Assembly (NCBI GenBank): GCA_963674755.2
Contig: CAXXVS010000001.1
Location: 64,001-128,000 of the forward strand
From: Desulfobacterales bacterium
Lineage (GTDB): Bacteria > Desulfobacterota > Desulfobacteria > Desulfobacterales > UBA5852
Length of the DNA: 64,000 nt
Direction: 5' to 3'
The position numbers were made by a program, and so were the translations under genes. This document shows, piece after piece, positions 17,952 through 40,456 of this stretch (position 1 is its first letter; every line of letters begins with the position of its first letter). The notes under the pieces were generated by a model. That model saw nothing but the letters and a program-made list of their open reading frames with translations. It searched no databases and was not told where the DNA came from.

Positions 17952-18000
17952 AAAAAGAAAGCGGGCTTTCGGTAATTTGCCGAAAGCCCGCTTTCTTTTT
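17952..18000 (-). terminator. Intrinsic terminator outside the distal att (probable pre-insertion tRNA-Val terminator)
   Basis: 21-bp perfect inverted repeat AAAAAGAAAGCGGGCTTTCGG/CCGAAAGCCCGCTTTCTTTTT adjoining the duplicated tRNA 3' end. Confidence 0.8.
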
Positions 18001-18001
18001 G

Positions 18002-18048
18002 TGGTAGGCACGATTGGATTTGAACCAACGACTTCTACCGTGTCAGGG
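18002..18048 (-). repeat. att site: duplicated 3' 47 bp of tRNA-Val
   Basis: Identical to 25934-25980. Confidence 0.95.
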
Positions 18049-18152
18049 GGGAATGGATATTTTATCTATATGATAACACTATGAATTTTGTACGTTTAGC
18101 ATGATAACACTAATATGTGTTACCATCTAAATGATCATTGGGCTACGTCCGA

Positions 18153-18461
18153 CTATGGTGCATGGCAAACATTTGAATTGCTCGCAATAGCAGCAAGGTC
18201 TTTTTCAGAGGGGACATATAAGACTTCTTGCAGTTCTGCATCATCATCTCGCAGAATAAGAATAAAATTGTTATTTTTGTTTTTTTTCAATAGCTTACGA
18301 AATTTTTTTTCTCTTGCTTTATCACTTTGTCCATAGATGGTGAAATAGTTCACATCTTCAGGACTTTGTGCCGTAAGCCTTCGAAATAACGGGCTTATAA
18401 AATTAGCGCCAGCTAGGGCGATTACCCAGTTATTTCTTTTTAGCTCTGTTAACGTTGGCAT
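18153..18461 (-). CDS. Hypothetical protein (AT-rich cargo, 102 aa)
   Basis: Open frame with purine-rich RBS (AGGGGG), 40 nt downstream of the 360-aa gene. Confidence 0.6.
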   Translation of the reverse strand: MPTLTELKRNNWVIALAGANFISPLFRRLTAQSPEDVNYFTIYGQSDKAREKKFRKLLKKNKNNNFILILRDDDAELQEVLYVPSEKDLAAIASNSNVCHAP

Positions 18462-18501
18462 CCCGCATCCCCCTATTGTTAAAAAGAGTATGGATATCAG
18501 A

Positions 18502-19584
18502 TTAAATATCCATAGTAAATATTTCTTTTATTTGATTGAGGACCCATTGCAAAGGGTAAATGAAGCTTGGCGCATGGGTTCTAGTCTCAATTGATCGTGC
18601 GGCCAGCGCCATGAAAGCCACTTCCTTGGCTGCCGCTTTTTGCTCATCCCATCCAGAGGCCTCCTCAATTTTTTTCCTGGAATCAGGTAGCAACTTGCAA
18701 AGTTGCGTCATGACATCCCGTGGGAATATCCCCTGGCCTGGATCCCCTTCCCCAACTATGGTTAATTTTTGGGTTAATTTCCCGTCCCTTTTACTTTTCA
18801 AGGTCTCAAAATCTGTAAATTTTTCCGGATCCTGTGAGTCTATTGATAGGACAGCTATCAATTTTTGATATCGTCCAAGTATCCCAACCGCCATATATGA
18901 CTGTATTTTACTCTTATCTGAGCTCAATGATTCATAAATATCATTATCCGTAATTCCAAAATTTTCTTTAAAAAATCTTCTCGTGGCTTTTTCATCTTTT
19001 AAAATCGCGACCGGAATGTTGCCTATTTGGATGCTATTTAAAATCTCATCAACTTTAGTTCCTGAAGAGGCAGTATCCCAGGCTTTACCAGGAATTCCTT
19101 GGCCTTTTCTAAAAAAAGCCTTACCTTCTTCAAAATCACTATCTCCGATTCCGTAACTGATTCTTTCGTAAATTTTCAGCTTATTCTTATATGGGATGAA
19201 AAGAGAGGCTCTGCACGTTCCACGCCATTCATAGTGATCCATTAAAAATGTGATTAACTGTTTAATCAGTTCTTTCTTAAATTCAAAGCCAACGATATTT
19301 GATTTTGATAAATAGAACTCCTTGAAGAGATTAATTGCTGATAAAATGGCAATGAGCCAAGCAAATATATTGAAGAGCATTAAAAAAGAATGAAAGACCG
19401 TGGCATCAAGTAGATTCACGTCAATACTATAGAAATTAAGCAGGCTTCTAACGATTAAATCGGATAGGCAGGGGAGGATAATTAATAGTAAGGTGAGGTA
19501 AAACTGAAGGCCACTGAGCGTCTTTAGGAGTCGGGCCTTTTTGTAATGCTTAAGTCTGAGTAGGTTAAGAATAGATGTGAACAT
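18502..19584 (-). CDS. Membrane protein, two N-terminal TM helices plus GAF-like domain (AT-rich cargo)
   Basis: Two hydrophobic stretches; RASLFIP, F..GQGIPGKAW, SYMAVGI..IAVLSIDS GAF-like pattern; RBS GAGGA. Confidence 0.65.
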   Translation of the reverse strand: MFTSILNLLRLKHYKKARLLKTLSGLQFYLTLLLIILPCLSDLIVRSLLNFYSIDVNLLDATVFHSFLMLFNIFAWLIAILSAINLFKEFYLSKSNIVGFEFKKELIKQLITFLMDHYEWRGTCRASLFIPYKNKLKIYERISYGIGDSDFEEGKAFFRKGQGIPGKAWDTASSGTKVDEILNSIQIGNIPVAILKDEKATRRFFKENFGITDNDIYESLSSDKSKIQSYMAVGILGRYQKLIAVLSIDSQDPEKFTDFETLKSKRDGKLTQKLTIVGEGDPGQGIFPRDVMTQLCKLLPDSRKKIEEASGWDEQKAAAKEVAFMALAARSIETRTHAPSFIYPLQWVLNQIKEIFTMDI

Positions 19585-19786
19585 ATCCTCAGATCAGGTT
19601 TTGGTTAACCTTTTTGGGATCAGATATTTTTGAGCCATGTCTGGCATAATTTGAAGGATTGCAGCTGGAGGGATTTCTTGCCGCCTGAAAATACTATATT
19701 TTATGCAGTTAGCAAGAAATTCTTAATATGTAAAGACTTTTTTTGATGCTTCATTTGCGGCATTGCTCAATAGATCAAGACCAAAA

Positions 19787-20899
19787 TCATTCTAAGGGTT
19801 TGATAAGTCCAATAGTCTTACGCCTCAAGCGGTTGGTAACATGCTGATAGTGTTTCCGCAAGGTCTCCGGCGAGCTTCCAACGATCGCAGCCACGGCGCC
19901 GATGTCGGCACCCTCCTCGAGGGCGGCGGTGATGAAATTGTGGCGCATATCGTACGGTCTCAGGCGGCGCTTGATGCCGGCGCGGATCAGGGCGTTTTCC
20001 CAGGCGGTTTTGATGCTGCCGACCGGTTTGTCGCGGTAGCGGATAATCGGACCCTTTTTGCCGTCCTGTTTCCACCAGGTTTTCAGTTCTGAGATAAAGC
20101 CTTCGTGGATGGGGACATGGCGGCGGTCCATGCCGCCCTTCTCGGCGGAAATAACCTCGATGGTGTTGGTGTCCCAGTTGACTGCGTCCCAGGTGAGGCC
20201 CAGCATTTCGACGGCGCCGGGGCGCATGCCCATGTAGTAGCTGAGCTTGATGAAGCGCACCAGGTGGGGCTCGGCCGCTTTCAAAATGGCCCGGGTTTCG
20301 GCCATGGACGGCGGACGGATATCGACCCGCTCTGGCCTGGGCTTTTTGAAATCCCGCACGGGATTGTAGGAGATCAAGGGGGGCTCCTGGCTAACCGCCC
20401 AGTTGAGGATCGCTTTCACGTCGGTTAGCTCGCGGTGGATGGTGGCGTCGCTGATGGGCTTTTGGATACGTTTGCCTTCCAGCTTCTTGCGCCACTTTTT
20501 GACCGACTTGATGGTGGTGCGATCGATGACTGTCCGCGTGGCTTTACGTCGCTCGGCCACGTAGCGCCGCATGTCCTCATGGCTGATCTGGGTGGCCACC
20601 ATGGTGCCGAAAAAGGGAAGGATGTTAGCAGAGAGCCGATAACCGAGCATTCTGCGGCTGTTGACGTTGAATTCCTTCTCCTGCATGTAGCTCACGGCCA
20701 GCTGGGAGAAGAGGGGGCCGCTGGGCTTTTCTTTGGTGCGCCGGCGGCCGAAGCCAAGCTCGTCATTACGCACCCGGGCAGAGGCCTCAGCCTTAGCACC
20801 GTGGCCGAAATATTCCCGTGTGCGATTGGGATCGTCCGGGATCGTTCCCTTGCGATACCGGACGATCCAGCGCCCGTCTTTTAGTTGGTGGACCGCCAT
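19787..20899 (-). CDS. Tyrosine recombinase/integrase
   Basis: N-terminal arm-binding beta strands (DGRWIVRY), GMR..E, K, YDMRH, and HY catalytic tyrosine. Confidence 0.9.
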   Translation of the reverse strand: MAVHQLKDGRWIVRYRKGTIPDDPNRTREYFGHGAKAEASARVRNDELGFGRRRTKEKPSGPLFSQLAVSYMQEKEFNVNSRRMLGYRLSANILPFFGTMVATQISHEDMRRYVAERRKATRTVIDRTTIKSVKKWRKKLEGKRIQKPISDATIHRELTDVKAILNWAVSQEPPLISYNPVRDFKKPRPERVDIRPPSMAETRAILKAAEPHLVRFIKLSYYMGMRPGAVEMLGLTWDAVNWDTNTIEVISAEKGGMDRRHVPIHEGFISELKTWWKQDGKKGPIIRYRDKPVGSIKTAWENALIRAGIKRRLRPYDMRHNFITAALEEGADIGAVAAIVGSSPETLRKHYQHVTNRLRRKTIGLIKPLE

Positions 20900-20911
20900 A
20901 ATGAATCTATC

Positions 20912-21124
20912 TCAAGTTTTGGACAGCCTGTCCACAGAGCAGTGCTCACTATCAACGCCCTCCCTGGCGTTTTTTCTCGATTTGATCTCTGTTGGATTAG
21001 CTTTACAAAAGGCGCGTATAAAAATTTTTTCAATCTCTCTTGCCCGCCGGGCAACTCTTTCACGTCTAAGCTTTTCCTCAACACGCTCGACACGAAAGTC
21101 ATCTAATACGATCAATTTCCCCAT
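20912..21124 (-). CDS. Small basic hypothetical protein (70 aa) directly upstream of the integrase
   Basis: Strong RBS AAGGAGG before ATG 21124. Confidence 0.55.
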   Translation of the reverse strand: MGKLIVLDDFRVERVEEKLRRERVARRAREIEKIFIRAFCKANPTEIKSRKNAREGVDSEHCSVDRLSKT

Positions 21125-21134
21125 TTGAACCTCC

Positions 21135-21280
21135 TTTAAAAACAAAACGCGCCGAGTGCTCTCAAGCCCCAATAAGGCTCCCCGGCCCTCACGGAATCCG
21201 GGACACTCGGCGCGCGTCATTTTTAAAGACTAAATAAAAATTCCAGATAACGGACTGGAAGCCGTATTGGGTTTGAGAGG
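21135..21280 (-). ncRNA. Structured leader RNA resembling phage P4 CI / P1 C4 antisense modules
   Basis: 11-bp perfect stem 21148-58/21204-14 enclosing a CC-GTGA-GG hairpin and a segment (21159-74) complementary to 21265-79. Confidence 0.5.
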
Positions 21281-21501
21281 GTTTAATTATTACCCAATCC
21301 AACAGCGGAGATCAAGTAAAAAGAAACGGCTCGAAATCGGCCATGGTTAGTGTAAGCGTTAACCCGAGATCGTCCAATAAACGTGAAATGGCGCCGTCGG
21401 TTTTACGGGCCGTGCTATAAAAAGTGGCAAAATAGATGTTTAGGACTATAATTTATTTCAAAAGCTGCAAGAGGCCTTCTGATAATTAATTTCCATAGTG
21501 G

Positions 21502-21735
21502 CTAAGGGCATTGCAGCTTAGATAATCTTCTCTTTCCTTCAAGCATACGATAGCGCCGATACAATCCAGGCTTAAAGATCGCCCATAGGAGAAGATAAAA
21601 ATTCGTGCCGTCGCCGTACCCCGGGTTGCGATTCGCCCGAAAGCAAAGACATCCGTCGCAATCAAGGTCATCATCATTGGCCCTGGCGACGGTCATTAAG
21701 CAGTCCGCATACCGTTTGCAATCCGGTTTTCGCAT
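21502..21735 (-). CDS. Small Cys-rich (putative Zn-binding) protein
   Basis: C-x5-C...CDGC pattern, 77 aa, co-oriented with the element. Confidence 0.5.
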   Translation of the reverse strand: MRKPDCKRYADCLMTVARANDDDLDCDGCLCFRANRNPGYGDGTNFYLLLWAIFKPGLYRRYRMLEGKRRLSKLQCP

Positions 21736-21981
21736 GGCATGAAAATAGGGTGTGGGCGGGTTACCCCGCCCGTGGCAATGAGGGGCATCAAAAGGAAATG
21801 GTCATCGCGGACCCCAAATGCCTCACCCACCACGACCCGCGATCACCCGCACGTTGATTATGGCGCCTTTTTTACGGTTGACGAGACCGCCAGGGATGGC
21901 CCCATGACCTAAATGCTTTTCCCTGTAGACGCAGGCGGGGAGGGTGCCGGGAAGAGCACAAACCGCCTGCGCCTAAGTCTG

Positions 21982-23808
21982 TTACGGAGCGTTATGGCCT
22001 GCACAGAAGGCGCCGGCCTGGCGAACGCCTAAATCGCAATCAAACAGCGCCCGGACGCGGACGTTGCCGGAAGTAAATCCCGTATAGGGATCAGCCAGCA
22101 GCTCCAGGACACCCCAGTGACCGATAAGCAGCTGGGAGAAGTCGCCCAAAAGAATATACCCGGTGGGCATCTGGTTGGTAGCAAAAGCCCGATAGCCGTT
22201 CACGCGCCCTTCGCCGGGCTCCGCGCTGTTCTCCCACACAAAAACGGGATAACCGGCAATTTTGGGTTGGGTCTTTAAGCCTTTGCAAAGCGCCGGCGTC
22301 GTGAGATATGCGCAGCCCTTGGGATCTACGTTGGCGGTCAGGACATCTTCTTCAAGCTCGCAGACTTCCGCAAACGTGGGGGTGTCCGCCACAAAGTCCA
22401 CGACGCCGATACCCGTGGTGACCAGGATCCCGGATGGCTGATTGTCCGCACCGGTACCGTTGATGCCGGCGGAATCCACCGCAACGGCCACCGTGTCAGC
22501 CAGGTCCTGGCGGACCAGGTTTTCAATGTCCGGACTGGACTGGACCAGCATCCGGTGGGAGAACTCCACCAGGCCGGCAACGGTGTGCGGCGTCAAGGGA
22601 ACAGCGCCGAACGCCGGAGTGGATTCGGTGATTTCTCCGGATCCGTCGTTGGCGATCCAGTAGGCCGAGGCCGCCCCTGTTTTTTTAGGGATGGACACAT
22701 TGCCGATAAGGCCGGAAATGATCCGCGCCCCCAGGGCTTGCAGCAGCATGCGGTTGCGCAGCACGTCAATAAACTGGTCGGCAAGGTGCTGTGTTTCGAC
22801 CAGGTTGCTTCCGGTGCCGGCATAGGTGATGTCACGCCGGCCGTATGTCTTCTGAATATCCAGGGGAATCAGAATGCCCTTGGCTTCCCGGCCGAGCTTT
22901 TTGGCCGTAGCTTCCGAGCATTCCAGCTCGAAGCCGGCATGACGGGCGAACTTGTGGTCAACCAACGCCAGGATTGCATTGGATATGCTGTAGCGCTGCA
23001 TTTCGCGTCCGGACAGGCCGAGCTCGAAGCCTCCCATCCCTGCATACATGGTATCGCCGGCCGGAAAAGGTCCCGAAACCATGGGACGTGCATTCGCCCC
23101 ACTCCGATCCATGACAAAGTTGCGGAACTCATCGAGCGTCTTTCCCTGTTCCATAAACTCCAATGCTTCCTTTTGGAGGCCGGTTCGTTTGCCGATGGCG
23201 ATGATTTCAAGATGGTCATTACTCAGATTGCCGTTGTCTCTGGTGGTCGCGGATGCGCCTTTCATTGGAAACTCCCTCCGTTCAATAATCGTTTCGAATT
23301 TATCACCGCCGGCGGCCGCCCGTCCGAAGCCCACGGAAATATCGGCTGGGACCGCCACAATCGAAATTTCGAGCGGCTCCCAGTCGGTGGCACGGAAAAT
23401 AGGGTTGTCCGGATCCGACTCCTCCTGAACCATTTTATGGATACAATATCCGACTGATACATTCTGACGGATACCGTCGATGACATCCTGATAGATTTCT
23501 TCTCCTGCATCCGACTTCGAGAAACGCACTGTGGCCCGGCACTTGCCGCCCTGTATCTTGGCATCCTCGACAACCCCGACCTGCTTCCCGGTGTCATGAT
23601 CCAGGAGCACGGCGCCGCCCCTTTTGATGCGATCCAGGCGAACGGATCCCGGGCGATGGTCAAGGATTTCGGTGCCGAAATAGCGCTCGAAGGGGTCTTC
23701 TGAGGAAAAGGAAAGATTCAGTGTCCGATCTTTTTTCCGGGCACGCTGGACCTGGTCAATTTTTACATCGCGGAATAGTTTGGATGGCGTTTGGATCTTG
23801 CGAGGCAT
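21982..23808 (-). CDS. Prohead protease / HK97-fold major capsid protein fusion
   Basis: N-terminal LSFSSE, LLDHD, VSVGY, PLEISIVAVPAD (caudoviral prohead protease); C-terminal capsid patterns QSSPDIE, GTG..NQPSGI, GDFSQL. Confidence 0.92.
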   Translation of the reverse strand: MPRKIQTPSKLFRDVKIDQVQRARKKDRTLNLSFSSEDPFERYFGTEILDHRPGSVRLDRIKRGGAVLLDHDTGKQVGVVEDAKIQGGKCRATVRFSKSDAGEEIYQDVIDGIRQNVSVGYCIHKMVQEESDPDNPIFRATDWEPLEISIVAVPADISVGFGRAAAGGDKFETIIERREFPMKGASATTRDNGNLSNDHLEIIAIGKRTGLQKEALEFMEQGKTLDEFRNFVMDRSGANARPMVSGPFPAGDTMYAGMGGFELGLSGREMQRYSISNAILALVDHKFARHAGFELECSEATAKKLGREAKGILIPLDIQKTYGRRDITYAGTGSNLVETQHLADQFIDVLRNRMLLQALGARIISGLIGNVSIPKKTGAASAYWIANDGSGEITESTPAFGAVPLTPHTVAGLVEFSHRMLVQSSPDIENLVRQDLADTVAVAVDSAGINGTGADNQPSGILVTTGIGVVDFVADTPTFAEVCELEEDVLTANVDPKGCAYLTTPALCKGLKTQPKIAGYPVFVWENSAEPGEGRVNGYRAFATNQMPTGYILLGDFSQLLIGHWGVLELLADPYTGFTSGNVRVRALFDCDLGVRQAGAFCAGHNAP

Positions 23809-23911
23809 GCGACCCCCTCCCGGATAGAGAAGAATTAAGGTGATGCCTTGCGTTTTTCATATTTTGGGGTGTCAGGGGAAGCACCAGCGCCGCCAATGGC
23901 ACGGATGGCAC

Positions 23912-24130
23912 TTAAAGTTGATTTGTGCGGCCTGTTTCGAGGGAAAATGCGGCTTCCTGCCGGCGAATATAGTCATTAAGGCTGTCCTCGCGCACCCGTA
24001 TGCAGCGCTGTCCGAAGCGTGCCGCCACGATCGCGCCGCTTTCGATCAGCCGGTAAGCGGCCCGTTTGGAAATATCCAGGCGCTCGGCAACGGTCGTAGG
24101 CCTCAGCCATTTGGTTTTAGTAGAAGACAT
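23912..24130 (-). CDS. Excisionase/AlpA-like HTH DNA-binding protein
   Basis: WLRPTTVAERLDISKRAAYRLIESGAIVAARFGQRCIRV, an HTH_17-type pattern. Confidence 0.85.
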   Translation of the reverse strand: MSSTKTKWLRPTTVAERLDISKRAAYRLIESGAIVAARFGQRCIRVREDSLNDYIRRQEAAFSLETGRTNQL

Positions 24131-24159
24131 CCGCCCCCGCTTGAACATCCTTTCCAAAA

Positions 24160-24485
24160 CGGAAATGGTCCTGCTGGTCCTGGCCTGGTCATGCGGCCGT
24201 CATTTACCGCAATAAACTGAATCTATAGGGAAAATTAAAAAGCGTTCGGTGCTCTGGACAAAAAAAGACCAGATCCTGAAATCTATTTATATAAAAATAT
24301 ATTTTTTTTATTTACTTCTTTATTTTGGCTAATAAAGGTCCTAAAGGTCTCAAGATAGCGAAATAATTAAAAATCGAAACTGGACCATGCCAGGACCATA
24401 GATGCTTTTTTGGTAAATTAGCCAACAGTTTTTAGGACTATTAGGGGTATTGTCCTATTCAATCATCCTAAATGGTCCTATGGGA
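24160..24485. other. Putative replication origin (AT-rich core with GGTCCT-like iterons)
   Basis: TGGTCCT 24166, 24175, 24473; AGGTCCT 24336; inverted TGGACCA 24381, AGGACCA 24392, AGGACTA 24434; AT-rich core around 24280-24330. Confidence 0.55.
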
Positions 24486-24493
24486 GCACCCGT

Positions 24494-25039
24494 TTAGGCC
24501 GCTTTACTGGCTTGGTAGGCCCTCCCCTGGGCGGTCAGCCGCAGGCCAAGATAGAAGACGATCGATCGCTTTTCACGCTGGAAATGCTTGCCGAACTCGA
24601 CGCCAAATCGTTTCCAGCTGGGCGGATCCTCGCCGGCGGTCGACTCCCACCACCTGCGAAAGGCCTCATACACCTGGCGAGCCGGCACCCGCGATCCGTC
24701 CGGAGCCGGCGAAATGCAGACCTTCGCGAAGTCGACCACGGCCCGCGCCAGGCCCTGGTCATCACCACAGCTCGGCAGCGGCTCATATCGTCCCGCCAGG
24801 GCGCCGGCAAGCTTGGCCGCGTTCCGCCTGGTGGCCCTTGCTTGGTCGGCTGCCAGGGATGCCTGGCGCTCGATGGCGGCCGCTGCGGCAAGGAAGCCCT
24901 TCATCCCTCGCTCGGCATCGAGGCGGCCGGCCTGGTAGCCTTCCGCAAATATTTCCTCGCAAATCCGTGGGAACCGTCTTTTGATGCTTTCAACGGTTGG
25001 GGTCTCCACTTGGTCAAGCAGGCTTATTTTTTTCCCCAT
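24494..25039 (-). CDS. Protein with C-terminal D5/P4-primase-type winged-helix DNA-binding domain, without primase or helicase domains
   Basis: F...C....V....VYEAFRRWW...GE.P.S.KRFG..F......R.....YLGLRL; RBS GAGGTG. Confidence 0.7.
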   Translation of the reverse strand: MGKKISLLDQVETPTVESIKRRFPRICEEIFAEGYQAGRLDAERGMKGFLAAAAAIERQASLAADQARATRRNAAKLAGALAGRYEPLPSCGDDQGLARAVVDFAKVCISPAPDGSRVPARQVYEAFRRWWESTAGEDPPSWKRFGVEFGKHFQREKRSIVFYLGLRLTAQGRAYQASKAA

Positions 25040-25096
25040 GGGGACACCTCATTCCATTTTCCATTCCATTTTCAATTTTCACCTGGGCACTTTGAT

Positions 25097-25142
25097 CGCG
25101 ACCGGCCAAACCGCATATGGCGACCTCTGAGGAAGGACCCGC
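25097..25142 (-). other. Candidate lambda-type cos packaging site (cosQ-cosN)
   Basis: Minus strand GCGGGTCCTTCC...ATGCG-GTTTGGCCGGT-CGCG; GGGTCCT equals lambda cosQ, with similar spacing. Confidence 0.5.
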
Positions 25143-25310
25143 TGTGCCGATTGCCATTTTAGGACCTTTGGCTAGTCTGCCTGAAAGGTGAGGAGGCGGG
25201 GCGACGGCGACGGCGGACAGCTTTGAAGAGGAATCCTGTCTATTTTGATTCCATCCAAAGTAGCAATGTAGATCAGTAGCCGACATGCCCCAACTCCCCT
25301 TTGGCAATCT

Positions 25311-25679
25311 TCATGGAAGAGTCATAATTGTGAGTGGTTTACCAGAGGCTTTTGCCTTCTCGCGTGAATCTGGCGTTGACATGGCTTTCAACTGTTGGCC
25401 AAGTCGCTGCATCTCTTTTTCGATCTCATTAGAATCAAATCCTAACGCTTCCATTTTAAAACCCACGCTCCTAATCTTTGAATCGGCGTTTATTTCCTTT
25501 GGATCAATTCCGGCCTCTCCATACCAATAAGCGAGCTTTTGACGACGGAAGAACGCCTCCTTCTCAATCAATTTGGACAGGAGTTTGGGAATAGCAATTC
25601 CAGACTCTCCCGCCATTTGTTGAAGCTTTTCGTGCGTGTCATCCTGCAGCCTTACTGAAACAACTTTCGTCGGTGACAT
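25311..25679 (-). CDS. Ribbon-helix-helix (CopG/Arc-like) regulator
   Basis: TKVVSVRLQDDTHEKLQQMAGESGIAIPKLLSKLIE; RBS AAGGAGG. Confidence 0.75.
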   Translation of the reverse strand: MSPTKVVSVRLQDDTHEKLQQMAGESGIAIPKLLSKLIEKEAFFRRQKLAYWYGEAGIDPKEINADSKIRSVGFKMEALGFDSNEIEKEMQRLGQQLKAMSTPDSREKAKASGKPLTIMTLP

Positions 25680-25880
25680 AAATCCTCCTTTTGGAATTGA
25701 ATACAAATAATTACAAACGTAGTCGTATAGACTACAAAAGTCAATGAAAATTGTCAGAACATCTGGAGGCATCGAGTTGTGAAGATAAATTTCTTTTTCC
25801 CTGGTGAAGCTAATTTTTTGTGGGGGGTGTGGGGTAAAGGAGGATATCGGACAGACAAATGGTAACACCTGTGTTACCAA

Positions 25881-25923
25881 AAACACTTAGGGCCGCCTCG
25901 TTGAGAAGCGGCCCTAAGTGTTT
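25881..25923 (-). terminator. Element-supplied terminator downstream of tRNA-Val
   Basis: 16-bp perfect inverted repeat AAACACTTAGGGCCGC/GCGGCCCTAAGTGTTT. Confidence 0.75.
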
Positions 25924-25933
25924 GTTCTCATTA

Positions 25934-26008
25934 TGGTAGGCACGATTGGATTTGAACCAACGACTTCTACCGTGTCAGGGTAGCGCTCTCCCCCTGAGCT
26001 ACGTGCCT
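25934..26008 (-). tRNA. tRNA-Val(GAC)
   Basis: Cloverleaf AGGCACG...CGTGCCT-A-CCA, anticodon loop CTGACAC, GGTTCAAATCC T arm. Confidence 0.95.
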
Positions 26009-40261: not shown

Positions 40262-40349
40262 GGAGGGATGGCTGAGTGGTCGAAAGCGGCGGTCTTGAAA
40301 ACCGTTGAGGGTAACACCTCCGTGGGTTCGAATCCTACTCCCTCCGCCA
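40262..40349 (+). tRNA. tRNA-Ser(TGA)
   Basis: GGAGGGA...TCCCTCC-G-CCA, long variable arm, anticodon loop CTTGAAA. Confidence 0.95.
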
Positions 40350-40363
40350 TCCGACAGCATAAC

Positions 40364-40456
40364 GGAGAGATGACCGAGTCGGCTGAAGGTGCTCGCCTGC
40401 TAAGCGAGTGTGGGGGTTAAACTCCACCATGGGTTCGAATCCCATTCTCTCCGCCA
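40364..40456 (+). tRNA. tRNA-Ser(GCT)
   Basis: GGAGAGA...TCTCTCC-G-CCA, anticodon loop CTGCTAA. Confidence 0.95.

Follow-up and report, generated by a model that had tools for sequence, protein, structure and literature searches.

A 7.9-kb capsid-bearing island at tRNA-Val in a Desulfobacterales bacterium: possible helper-dependent phage satellite or prophage remnant

In a 64,000-nucleotide stretch of the genome of a Desulfobacterales bacterium (assembly GCA_963674755.2, contig CAXXVS010000001.1, positions 64,001 to 128,000; this whole stretch is termed the window, and its own numbering is used below), a unit of 7,932 bp is inserted in the gene for tRNA-Val(GAC). What the sequence speaks for is a phage-derived island whose integration parts are intact, with an origin of replication that it could not fire alone and one complete capsid-building gene; such an island is most likely dependent on a helper phage and is probably still able to excise. 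We tentatively prefer to see in it a helper-dependent satellite akin to the phage-inducible chromosomal islands (PICIs), with a capsid homolog as its only virion gene, but the competing reading as a prophage remnant is nearly as plausible and the two remain close. The original prediction, made from the sequence alone, had proposed a helper-dependent capsid-only element of a previously unseen design. The gene content fits such an element, with the remnant reading close beside it, whereas the novelty has to be given up because satellites with a capsid homolog as the only virion gene are described in earlier reports (PMC5052747; PMC6092414; 10.1101/2020.12.28.424599).

The borders of the island are fixed by comparative data, as the left flank is 85% conserved up to 18050 in the genus mate G358 and the right flank is 73-81% conserved in G358 and several further genus mates. 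The attachment (att) repeats and the unit length claimed from the sequence are exact: a core of 47 nt at 18002-18048 equals 25934-25980 in 47/47 positions, and a repeat finder reports the pair as a direct repeat of 56 nt (17993-18048 / 25925-25980, 95%) with a spacing of 7,932 bp. All candidate genes lie on the minus strand, in the single direction that had been noted, and they are tightly packed, with ribosome-binding sites (RBSs) at those genes whose starts were read. The features that carry the argument are the following.

18002..18048: distal att copy, 47/47 identical to 25934-25980, closing the island unit of 7,932 bp
19787..20899, minus strand: tyrosine integrase, 370 aa, full length (Pfam E 1e-14; phrog_1 E 1e-46)
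21982..23808, minus strand: fusion of prohead protease, scaffold and HK97 major capsid protein (MCP), 608 aa, apparently intact
23912..24157, minus strand: HTH_17 excisionase or AlpA-like DNA-binding protein, 81 aa (Pfam, TIGR01764, phrog_66)
24163..24481: origin-like region in a non-coding stretch of ~330 bp, its (A/T)GGTCCT iterons set in inverted blocks on either side of an AT-rich core (~190 bp)
24494..25039, minus strand: winged-helix protein, 181 aa, the C-terminal Pox_D5-type (origin-binding) domain of a D5-like superfamily 3 (SF3) helicase
25014..25307, minus strand: small open reading frame (ORF) of up to 97 aa, homologous to the small gene in front of the D5-like helicase in lambda-like prophages of this order
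25860..25933: tRNA-proximal arm with two hairpins (blastn and hairpin scan)
25934-25980: tRNA-side att copy, the 3' 47 nt of tRNA-Val(GAC) (direct-repeat finding)
25934..26008, minus strand: tRNA-Val(GAC) (ARAGORN; Rfam tRNA 68.8 bits; repeat D1)

Ten island ORFs were run against Pfam, PHROGs and NCBIfam, and six against PADLOC. The 608-aa protein is the protease-capsid fusion that the original prediction had recognised: its residues 9-606 correspond to positions 7-623 of the 626 in phrog_617 (E 8e-140), and Pfam finds both Phage_capsid (E 5e-41) and Peptidase_S78 (E 4e-6). It scores 145 bits against NF045541, below the curated cutoff of 525, and is therefore placed in the broader HK97 protease-MCP family outside that equivalog. 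This family comprises at least 2,039 proteins at E<=1e-30 among 8,000 candidates scored, the best at 52% identity. Across 13 homologs 77 columns are invariant, of which the island member has 74, so that its loss falls in the range of 0-12 seen in other members; judged by these residues the capsid gene is not decayed, and its protease and capsid domains look fully functional. The closest isolated phages have genomes of 41-44 kb and fusions 39-43% identical over 90-98% of the island protein, and isolated phages with the same fusion include the Escherichia phages vB_EcoM_ECO1230-10 and ep3 and the Pseudomonas phage PPpW-3. In metagenomic relatives the fusion comes after TerL, a small gene and the portal, and the better capsid matches from the same order (L004, L009, L015) have a portal upstream where the upstream stretch is present; such upstream portals indicate that the fusion is normally part of a TerL-portal-capsid head module.

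The absence of portal, terminase, connector, tail and lysis genes, also claimed in the original prediction, held in Pfam, PHROGs and NCBIfam, and our own profiles made from the neighbours of capsid relatives (26 portal and 35 TerL sequences) reach the island at best with E 3.5 and 5, respectively. No debris of neighbouring phage genes was found in the island with these two profiles and 713 ORFs that flank the relatives' capsid genes. Profile searches of the ORFs thus identified integrase, excisionase and capsid and exposed no hidden virion gene, and they left the proposed ribbon-helix-helix (RHH) regulator below threshold. The HTH_17 protein was also considered as a miniature TerS and rejected, given E 1.9 in BLASTP against the TerS of resident prophage B; its match to phrog_57 is at E 0.044.

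For the integration genes, the earlier assignments stand. The 81-aa protein matches HTH_17 in Pfam (E 4e-12), TIGR01764 above its cutoff (38.6 against 28.8 bits) and phrog_66 (E 2e-6), and the integrase is complete; a paralog of the latter, 39% identical, lies at C2:1183917-1185050 in the same genome. Genus mates carry truncated copies of the integrase at 80-88% identity, which cover residues 259-370 in G058 (80%), residues 188-370 in G358 (88%) and residues 108-370 in G168 (82%), the last elsewhere in its genome and not at tRNA-Val(GAC). G058 and G358 have islands of ~6.1 kb and ~10.3 kb between att copies at tRNA-Val(GAC). In the former (L108, G058:C9:10000-24000) the integrase fragment is followed by AT-rich Fic and SMODS-fragment genes and then by att, and in the latter (L109, G358:C9:120000-137000) by AT-rich genes for Abi_alpha and an AAA_16 ATPase; between this cargo and the att copy the latter island also has chemotaxis and signalling genes of higher GC. 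About 200 bp, made up of 150 bp of chromosomal flank and the att core, are duplicated at both ends of the G358 island. Neither sister-species island contains a capsid, excisionase or winged-helix gene. The recurrence suggests a cargo slot beside the integrase, which would explain the internal position of this gene; that position had been singled out as special, yet the G058 island has the same integrase, AT-rich cargo and att layout. In the contexts of further integrase relatives (L110-L112) we found no similarity to proteins of prophages A or B.

The replication part of the island is where the claim of intact ORFs fails. The predicted winged-helix protein does hold such a domain, but its gene is a D5-type helicase cut down to the C-terminal domain, while the capsid fusion and the integrase are apparently intact and full length. 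Besides weak matches to Pox_D5 (E 0.003) and to a primase-family C-terminus (E 1e-4), residues 101-170 match positions 459-529 of 534 in a profile of six helicases at E 5e-16, and there is no other significant stretch against this profile, the D5_N and P-loop domains being absent. HMMER with the 181-aa protein against 1.84 billion representatives returned 19 other matches, all to residues ~86-174; among the 16 scanned, eight have Pox_D5 and five Bro-N, and several are small stand-alone proteins. Three of the eight Pox_D5 carriers stand in SF3-helicase contexts (two with D5_N and DUF5906, one with DUF5906 alone), and one further scanned match has D5_N and DUF5906 without Pox_D5. An in-frame internal deletion that kept the helicase N-terminus, as suggested by a MAFFT alignment, is not borne out by the profile search, where the C-terminal domain alone is significant.

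The neighbourhood tells the same lineage. By tblastn the small ORF matches L216 (48% over 31 aa, E 1e-4) and L217 (37% over 51 aa, E 2e-3), the region matching the helicase-upstream gene of related phage loci being residues 57-87, and positions 25050-25111 are 76% identical to the 62 bp directly upstream of the helicase start in the genus mate G240. A cos-like site had been placed at 25040-25310, which overlaps this ORF with its homologs, and no evidence for cos was found there. Six extended loci were compared (L215-L220, from genomes G155, G276, G179, G231, G005 and G240): in 5/6 the small ORF is followed by a D5-like helicase (535-556 aa) whose C-terminus forms a winged helix, a primase of 455-505 aa comes directly after the helicase in four and several genes further in L218, and three have a GpA terminase and a lambda-family portal further downstream. 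The primase of this module is a separate DnaG-type protein of ~480 aa, fused in G005 to a family A DNA polymerase (897 aa). Pfam, PHROGs and the helicase profile find no D5_N, P-loop or primase domain in the island. From the homology of the small ORF, the upstream DNA and the winged helix, the left part of the island is a phage replication module without the helicase core and the primase.

The ori-like repeats named in the original prediction are borne out by an iteron cluster with inverted arms and an AT-rich core. Four of the eight TGGTCCTR matches in 64 kb fall in 24166-24480, with 2.5 expected over the whole window. Positions 24278-24399 (122 bp) share 82% identity with C2:172316-172437, a stretch that immediately precedes the primase-derived ORF of prophage A; there, 33-nt arms (97% complementary) enclose a similar core, in the same inverted-iteron layout as in the island. 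Relatives of the primase part of prophage A occur in 24 of 300 other genomes of the order.

Both resident prophages lie on contig C2. Prophage A (C2:169,842-196,915; L193, L194) is lambda-like, 27 kb long and inserted in tRNA-Val(CAC), with a lambda-type portal, S49-type protease, scaffold, capsid, tail and lysis genes and no integrase found. The first 292 residues of its 770-aa ORF at C2:172425-174737 are primase-like and the rest is a GpA-type large terminase without the first 122 positions of its ATPase domain; on this sequence, prophage A is a defective, deletion-scarred prophage. It appears as a single 27,140-nt contig in one public run (X1). Prophage region B (C2 ~1,155,000-1,185,500; L007, L008) adjoins tRNA-Pro(CGG) and holds genes for TerS, TerL, portal, protease-capsid fusion, major tail, tape-measure and fibre proteins, along with genes for a ParB-like protein and a CI-like repressor and two genes of the integrase family; the 39% identical integrase paralog lies in this region. 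No repeat of the tRNA-Pro 3' end that could mark its borders was found within 1180-1192 kb. The portal of B matches our profile of portals accompanying this capsid family at E 3e-182. The fusion of B is 40-51% identical to that of the island (40% overall), which lacks ~65 linker residues after the protease domain. The tRNA-proximal arm of the island has likewise counterparts at both prophages by blastn: 25863-26001 is 83% identical to C2:196844-196982 in the arm beside tRNA-Val(CAC) of prophage A, and 25873-25964 is 78% identical to C2:1154970-1154881 beside tRNA-Pro at region B.

The remaining genes of the island are small or belong to the cargo, and they are listed here in the same manner.

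18153..18461, minus strand: AT-rich cargo ORF, 102 aa, with sub-threshold matches alone (Pfam, PHROGs)
18502..19584, minus strand: AT-rich cargo gene, 360 aa, with N-terminal membrane-type helices and a central GAF-like domain
20912..21124, minus strand: 70-aa ORF behind AAAGGAGG, a good RBS; a longer reading of 102 aa starts at 21220
21502..21735, minus strand: Cys-rich ORF, 77 aa, unverified, without a clear RBS
25311..25679, minus strand: putative RHH protein, 122 aa, weakly supported, its start behind AAGGAGG

The two AT-rich cargo genes were correctly foreseen, at 35-37% GC over 18.0-19.6 kb, and PADLOC gave no match for either. The 360-aa protein has 13 homologs, all named hypothetical, at 34-69% identity. 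In an AlphaFold2 model (mean pLDDT 71.6) membrane-type helices at the N-terminus precede a central domain, for which Foldseek lists 16 matches at E<=1e-3, mainly GAF and IclR effector domains, though the TM-scores are low (0.22-0.54); as a lead only, the modelled fold hints at a ligand-sensing membrane protein and possibly a defence gene. The RHH regulator of the original prediction is doubtful, as all its family matches are sub-threshold (phrog_3180 E 0.004, RHH_7 E 0.06, NikA-like E 0.01) and no match to a solved structure in the PDB was found at E<0.7. The Cys-rich ORF exists as described, with no family match in Pfam, PHROGs, NCBIfam or PADLOC, and its nearest Atlas clusters are unnamed proteins whose commonest phylum is Thermodesulfobacteriota. 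As for the structured leader and small ORF, the 70-aa ORF stands behind its RBS with no family match in the same four libraries, while the leader at 21221-21501 was rejected (fold z -1.0; 33/200 shuffles fold equally well).

Composition along the island is mosaic: apart from the AT-rich cargo, the origin has ~40% GC, and the winged-helix, capsid and integrase genes span 55-66%, capsid and integrase lying at 55-62%. Promoter and terminator scans stayed at chance level (9 against 8.9 expected and 13 against 12.2 expected), and in Rfam at E<=1 the tRNA alone scores above gathering. Just outside the distal att copy, at 17955-17997, a perfect hairpin with a 20-bp stem is followed by a T run and is probably the native tRNA-Val terminator displaced by the insertion; the hairpin now behind tRNA-Val, at 25885-25919, is supplied by the island. 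Elsewhere in the window, two tRNA-Ser genes (anticodons TGA and GCT) lie 14 bp apart at 40262-40456. Seven public sequencing runs hold at least part of the stretch, none of them RNA, and four were examined, all as contigs. In these four runs the island is one contig of 7,942 nt that breaks at the att repeats, where contigs end so that none joins across the island; its depth of 20.5, against 12.3 and 18.3 in the flanks, is not interpretable as copy number.

If the island works as a satellite, its cycle may be pictured as follows. On induction or infection, Int and Xis would excise a 7.9-kb circle, and the D5-helicase and primase pair of a lambda-like phage that shares these iterons, whether co-resident or incoming, would fire the island origin, which the winged-helix protein of the island might mark or compete for. 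The capsid fusion would then build shells on the lambda-family portal of a phage with a capsid fusion of this kind, or co-assemble with it, and the helper terminase would package the island DNA. Because the capsid relatives belong to phages of 41-44 kb, packaging would probably proceed as a concatemer of ~5 units, unless the island capsid forms smaller shells. A bolder version, in which the island draws on two phage lineages at once, taking helicase and primase from a lambda-like phage through the shared iterons and portal, terminase and tails from a second lineage, while its own share would be the origin-binding domain and a whole shell made from the one capsid fusion gene, strikes us as rather unlikely. 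Were it true, no smaller capsid-supplying satellite (7.9 kb) would be known, and sulfate-reducer-type Thermodesulfobacteriota would have their first candidate.

What favours a satellite is, above all, the state of the parts that such an element would need. The att copies are perfect (47/47) and the integrase is full length while the genus-mate copies are truncated, the capsid fusion is undecayed and no gene debris is left around it, and the genes are tightly packed in one direction with RBSs where read. Together, int, xis, origin, origin-binding domain, possible regulator, capsid and cargo make up a typical satellite set. Suitable partners also reside in the genome, for the origin is 82% common with the lambda-like prophage remnant A, and B has TerS, TerL, tail genes, a related fusion and the matching portal family; precedents, moreover, are published in three reports (PMC5052747; PMC6092414; 10.1101/2020.12.28.424599). 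Almost as well, the island could be an inert prophage remnant, in which two or three deletions took away most of the genome of a temperate phage or of tandem elements at tRNA-Val, so that excision would be possible but the DNA would never be packaged or transferred, and the surviving capsid gene would be a leftover seen before decay sets in. A good deal weighs against the satellite here. The helicase slot holds a winged-helix gene without D5_N or ATPase, its native upstream neighbour kept, and the primase is gone though the origin is kept, a pattern to be expected from deletions; for a primase of this type the genome itself gave a single match, the prophage A chimera, and no intact copy. That chimera, primase joined to TerL with 122 ATPase positions missing, documents a deletion of just this kind in the same genome, and on sequence both the genome and its relatives are rich in decaying elements, with truncated integrase copies in G058 and G358 and decayed islands in sister species, two of them at the same tRNA. 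The capsid gene must also have been cut from a head module if its relatives are a guide, because they usually lie directly behind a portal. The metagenome set comprises 80 loci with a fusion at 33-44% identity, and among the 48 whose upstream stretch reaches 2 kb or more, a lambda-type portal stands within 2.6 kb in 39, usually within 350 bp, and at 2.8-4.5 kb in three more; the upstream ORFs of the other six match a glycosyltransferase, a baseplate or virion-structural protein, an HNH-endonuclease or an esterase-like protein, or nothing, and no integrase or excisionase was found among those scanned. With a length of 608 aa, mid-range in a span of 561-746 aa among the 120 matches listed, nothing points to a size-reducing scaffold. 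No TerS family is found in the island at E<=0.01, and the search for a cos site shared with B came up empty: the island and the region near the terminase genes of B have no word of at least 13 nt in common and give no blastn match at E<=0.01. The GC mosaic of 35-66% also suits a remnant.

The search for relatives leans the same way. Over ~1,100 related genomes and 160 metagenomic and viral loci, no second element with the island gene set was found, an outcome that the original prediction itself had named as counting against it. The capsid fusion occurs in 6/400 other genomes of the order at E<=1e-20, in 0/9 of the same-genus genomes there, and in 5/400 genomes of a phylum sample at E<=1e-30; a capsid search of genome contigs gave three loci, of which one, situated on a 4.2-kb contig, is full-length (39%), and no viral contig carried the island capsid or winged-helix protein. 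The other nine island ORFs have no match in the 80 metagenome loci, the 80 viral loci (retrieved with P0002, the nearest capsid relative, as query) and a few genome loci, save the integrase paralog of the own genome, in a comparison that excludes the contexts of the two closest capsid relatives, P0002 (52%, 10,492-bp contig) and P0003 (46%). As far as the searches reach, the gene set appears to stand alone, and since relatives are lacking, the helicase is a remnant and decayed islands sit at the same tRNA site in sister species, the outcome leans against the satellite claimed by the original prediction. A remnant, however, does not easily account for the condition of what is left: all remaining genes are open, the fusion keeps the invariant residues of its family, att copies and integrase are whole, unlike those of the sister islands, no fragment of a neighbouring phage gene flanks the capsid gene on either side, and the genes that survive are just those required by a satellite, an outcome rarely to be expected of random deletions. 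Least likely in our view is an anti-phage island, whose capsid fusion and origin-binding domain would be mainly decoys, with transfer secondary or absent; the capsid copy would poison related heads, the winged helix would block origins with the same iterons, and the AT-rich cargo would add defence. The island does hold diverged parts of two resident lineages (capsid 40-51% to B, iterons 82% to A), the sister islands have defence-type cargo (Abi_alpha with AAA_16; Fic with a SMODS fragment), and the 360-aa cargo joins membrane-type helices to what is modelled as a GAF-like sensor fold. According to one report, the capsid homolog Ccm of SaPIbov5, expressed alone, blocks its helper 10^3 to 10^4-fold (PMC5052747). 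Yet PADLOC matched none of the six ORFs tested, co-assembly is uncertain at 40% identity, and the protease and capsid domains look functional, not crippled; such decoys would in any case overlap with a satellite, as interference and transfer go together in known satellites.

Were the island active as a helper-dependent satellite, it would show how far a phage parasite can be pared down, with one gene giving protease, scaffold and shell, an origin without its own replication enzyme, and the rest drawn from helpers, and it would extend capsid-type satellites to this phylum. Were it a remnant, a satellite-like gene set could come from a lambda-like prophage through a handful of deletions, and real satellites may plausibly arise along this route. 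Whichever reading holds, gene content alone is poor ground for naming single islands without relatives as new satellite designs.

We know of no described satellite in this phylum, a point for which no literature search was made. The Staphylococcus aureus pathogenicity islands (SaPIs) have a primase/replicase, and SaPIbov5 has, to our knowledge, no terS of its own. Set beside such SaPIs, the present island retains the origin-binding domain alone, and no cos site was found in comparison with prophage B. According to Carpena et al. (2016; PMC5052747), SaPIbov5 carries the cos site of its helper and through it relies on the helper terminase, and its ccm gene encodes an HK97-fold capsid homolog which redirects capsid size and redirects or blocks helper head assembly. 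The likeness lies in a small integrative island with an HK97-fold capsid homolog as head gene; unlike Ccm, of 355 aa with a shortened delta domain and no protease, the gene described here encodes a full protease-scaffold-capsid fusion of ordinary family length.

Capsid homologs are also reported for PmCI172 and EcCICFT073 (c1499) by Fillol-Salom et al. (2018; PMC6092414), and that paper shows several traits in common with our island: site-specific integration, genes in one direction, a capsid homolog without portal or TerL, and a repeat-bearing origin 3' of the replication gene. Those two elements carry pri-rep and have int beside alpA at one end, whereas the island has no replicase, its HTH_17 gene lies 3 kb from int, and its cargo stands between int and att. 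The PICI-like tycheposons (Hackl et al.; bioRxiv 10.1101/2020.12.28.424599) have terS or an MCP gene as their only packaging gene. Those with MCP are like the island, by description and not by sequence, in tRNA integration, tyrosine recombinase, excisionase and replication parts; unlike it, they live in marine cyanobacteria and have primase/helicase genes of their own. For capsid-forming PICIs (cf-PICIs), de Sousa et al. (2023; PMC10085698) give 11 core components, among which are TerL, TerS, portal, head-tail adaptor and connector. The island shares with them a capsid protein of its own, and cf-PICIs of Firmicutes also merge capsid and prohead protease (PMC10085698; bioRxiv 10.1101/2022.09.08.507074), but Pfam, PHROGs, NCBIfam and our own profiles find no TerL, TerS, portal, adaptor or connector in it. 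The elements known as VEIMEs carry no capsid gene (PMC9618062), and the isolated phages vB_EcoM_ECO1230-10, ep3 and PPpW-3 with the same fusion differ from the island as complete phages of 41-44 kb.

The PICI model of SatelliteFinder has, in the published component lists (PMC10085698), five core components, of which types A and B need 5 or 4. Compared by hand, the island reaches at most 3/5: integrase and capsid gene are present, primase-replicase and TerS are absent, and for the regulator it has a candidate in the HTH_17/TIGR01764 excisionase-family protein. From the seven components of the P4-like core in the same lists, psu-delta-sid, epsilon and the alpha primase-helicase are absent in PHROGs, Pfam and NCBIfam, and what the island has in common with P4 comes down to the integrase and an AlpA-like HTH protein. 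Because pri-rep, terS and the cf-PICI and P4 components are missing, the island is filed under no SatelliteFinder family, and the supplements of SatelliteFinder and of the tycheposon report may list closer elements. By functional analogy it comes closest to satellites with a capsid homolog as their sole virion gene (SaPIbov5, PmCI172, EcCICFT073 and the MCP tycheposons), from which it differs in its full-length protease-scaffold-capsid fusion, in having no replication enzyme and in its small size.

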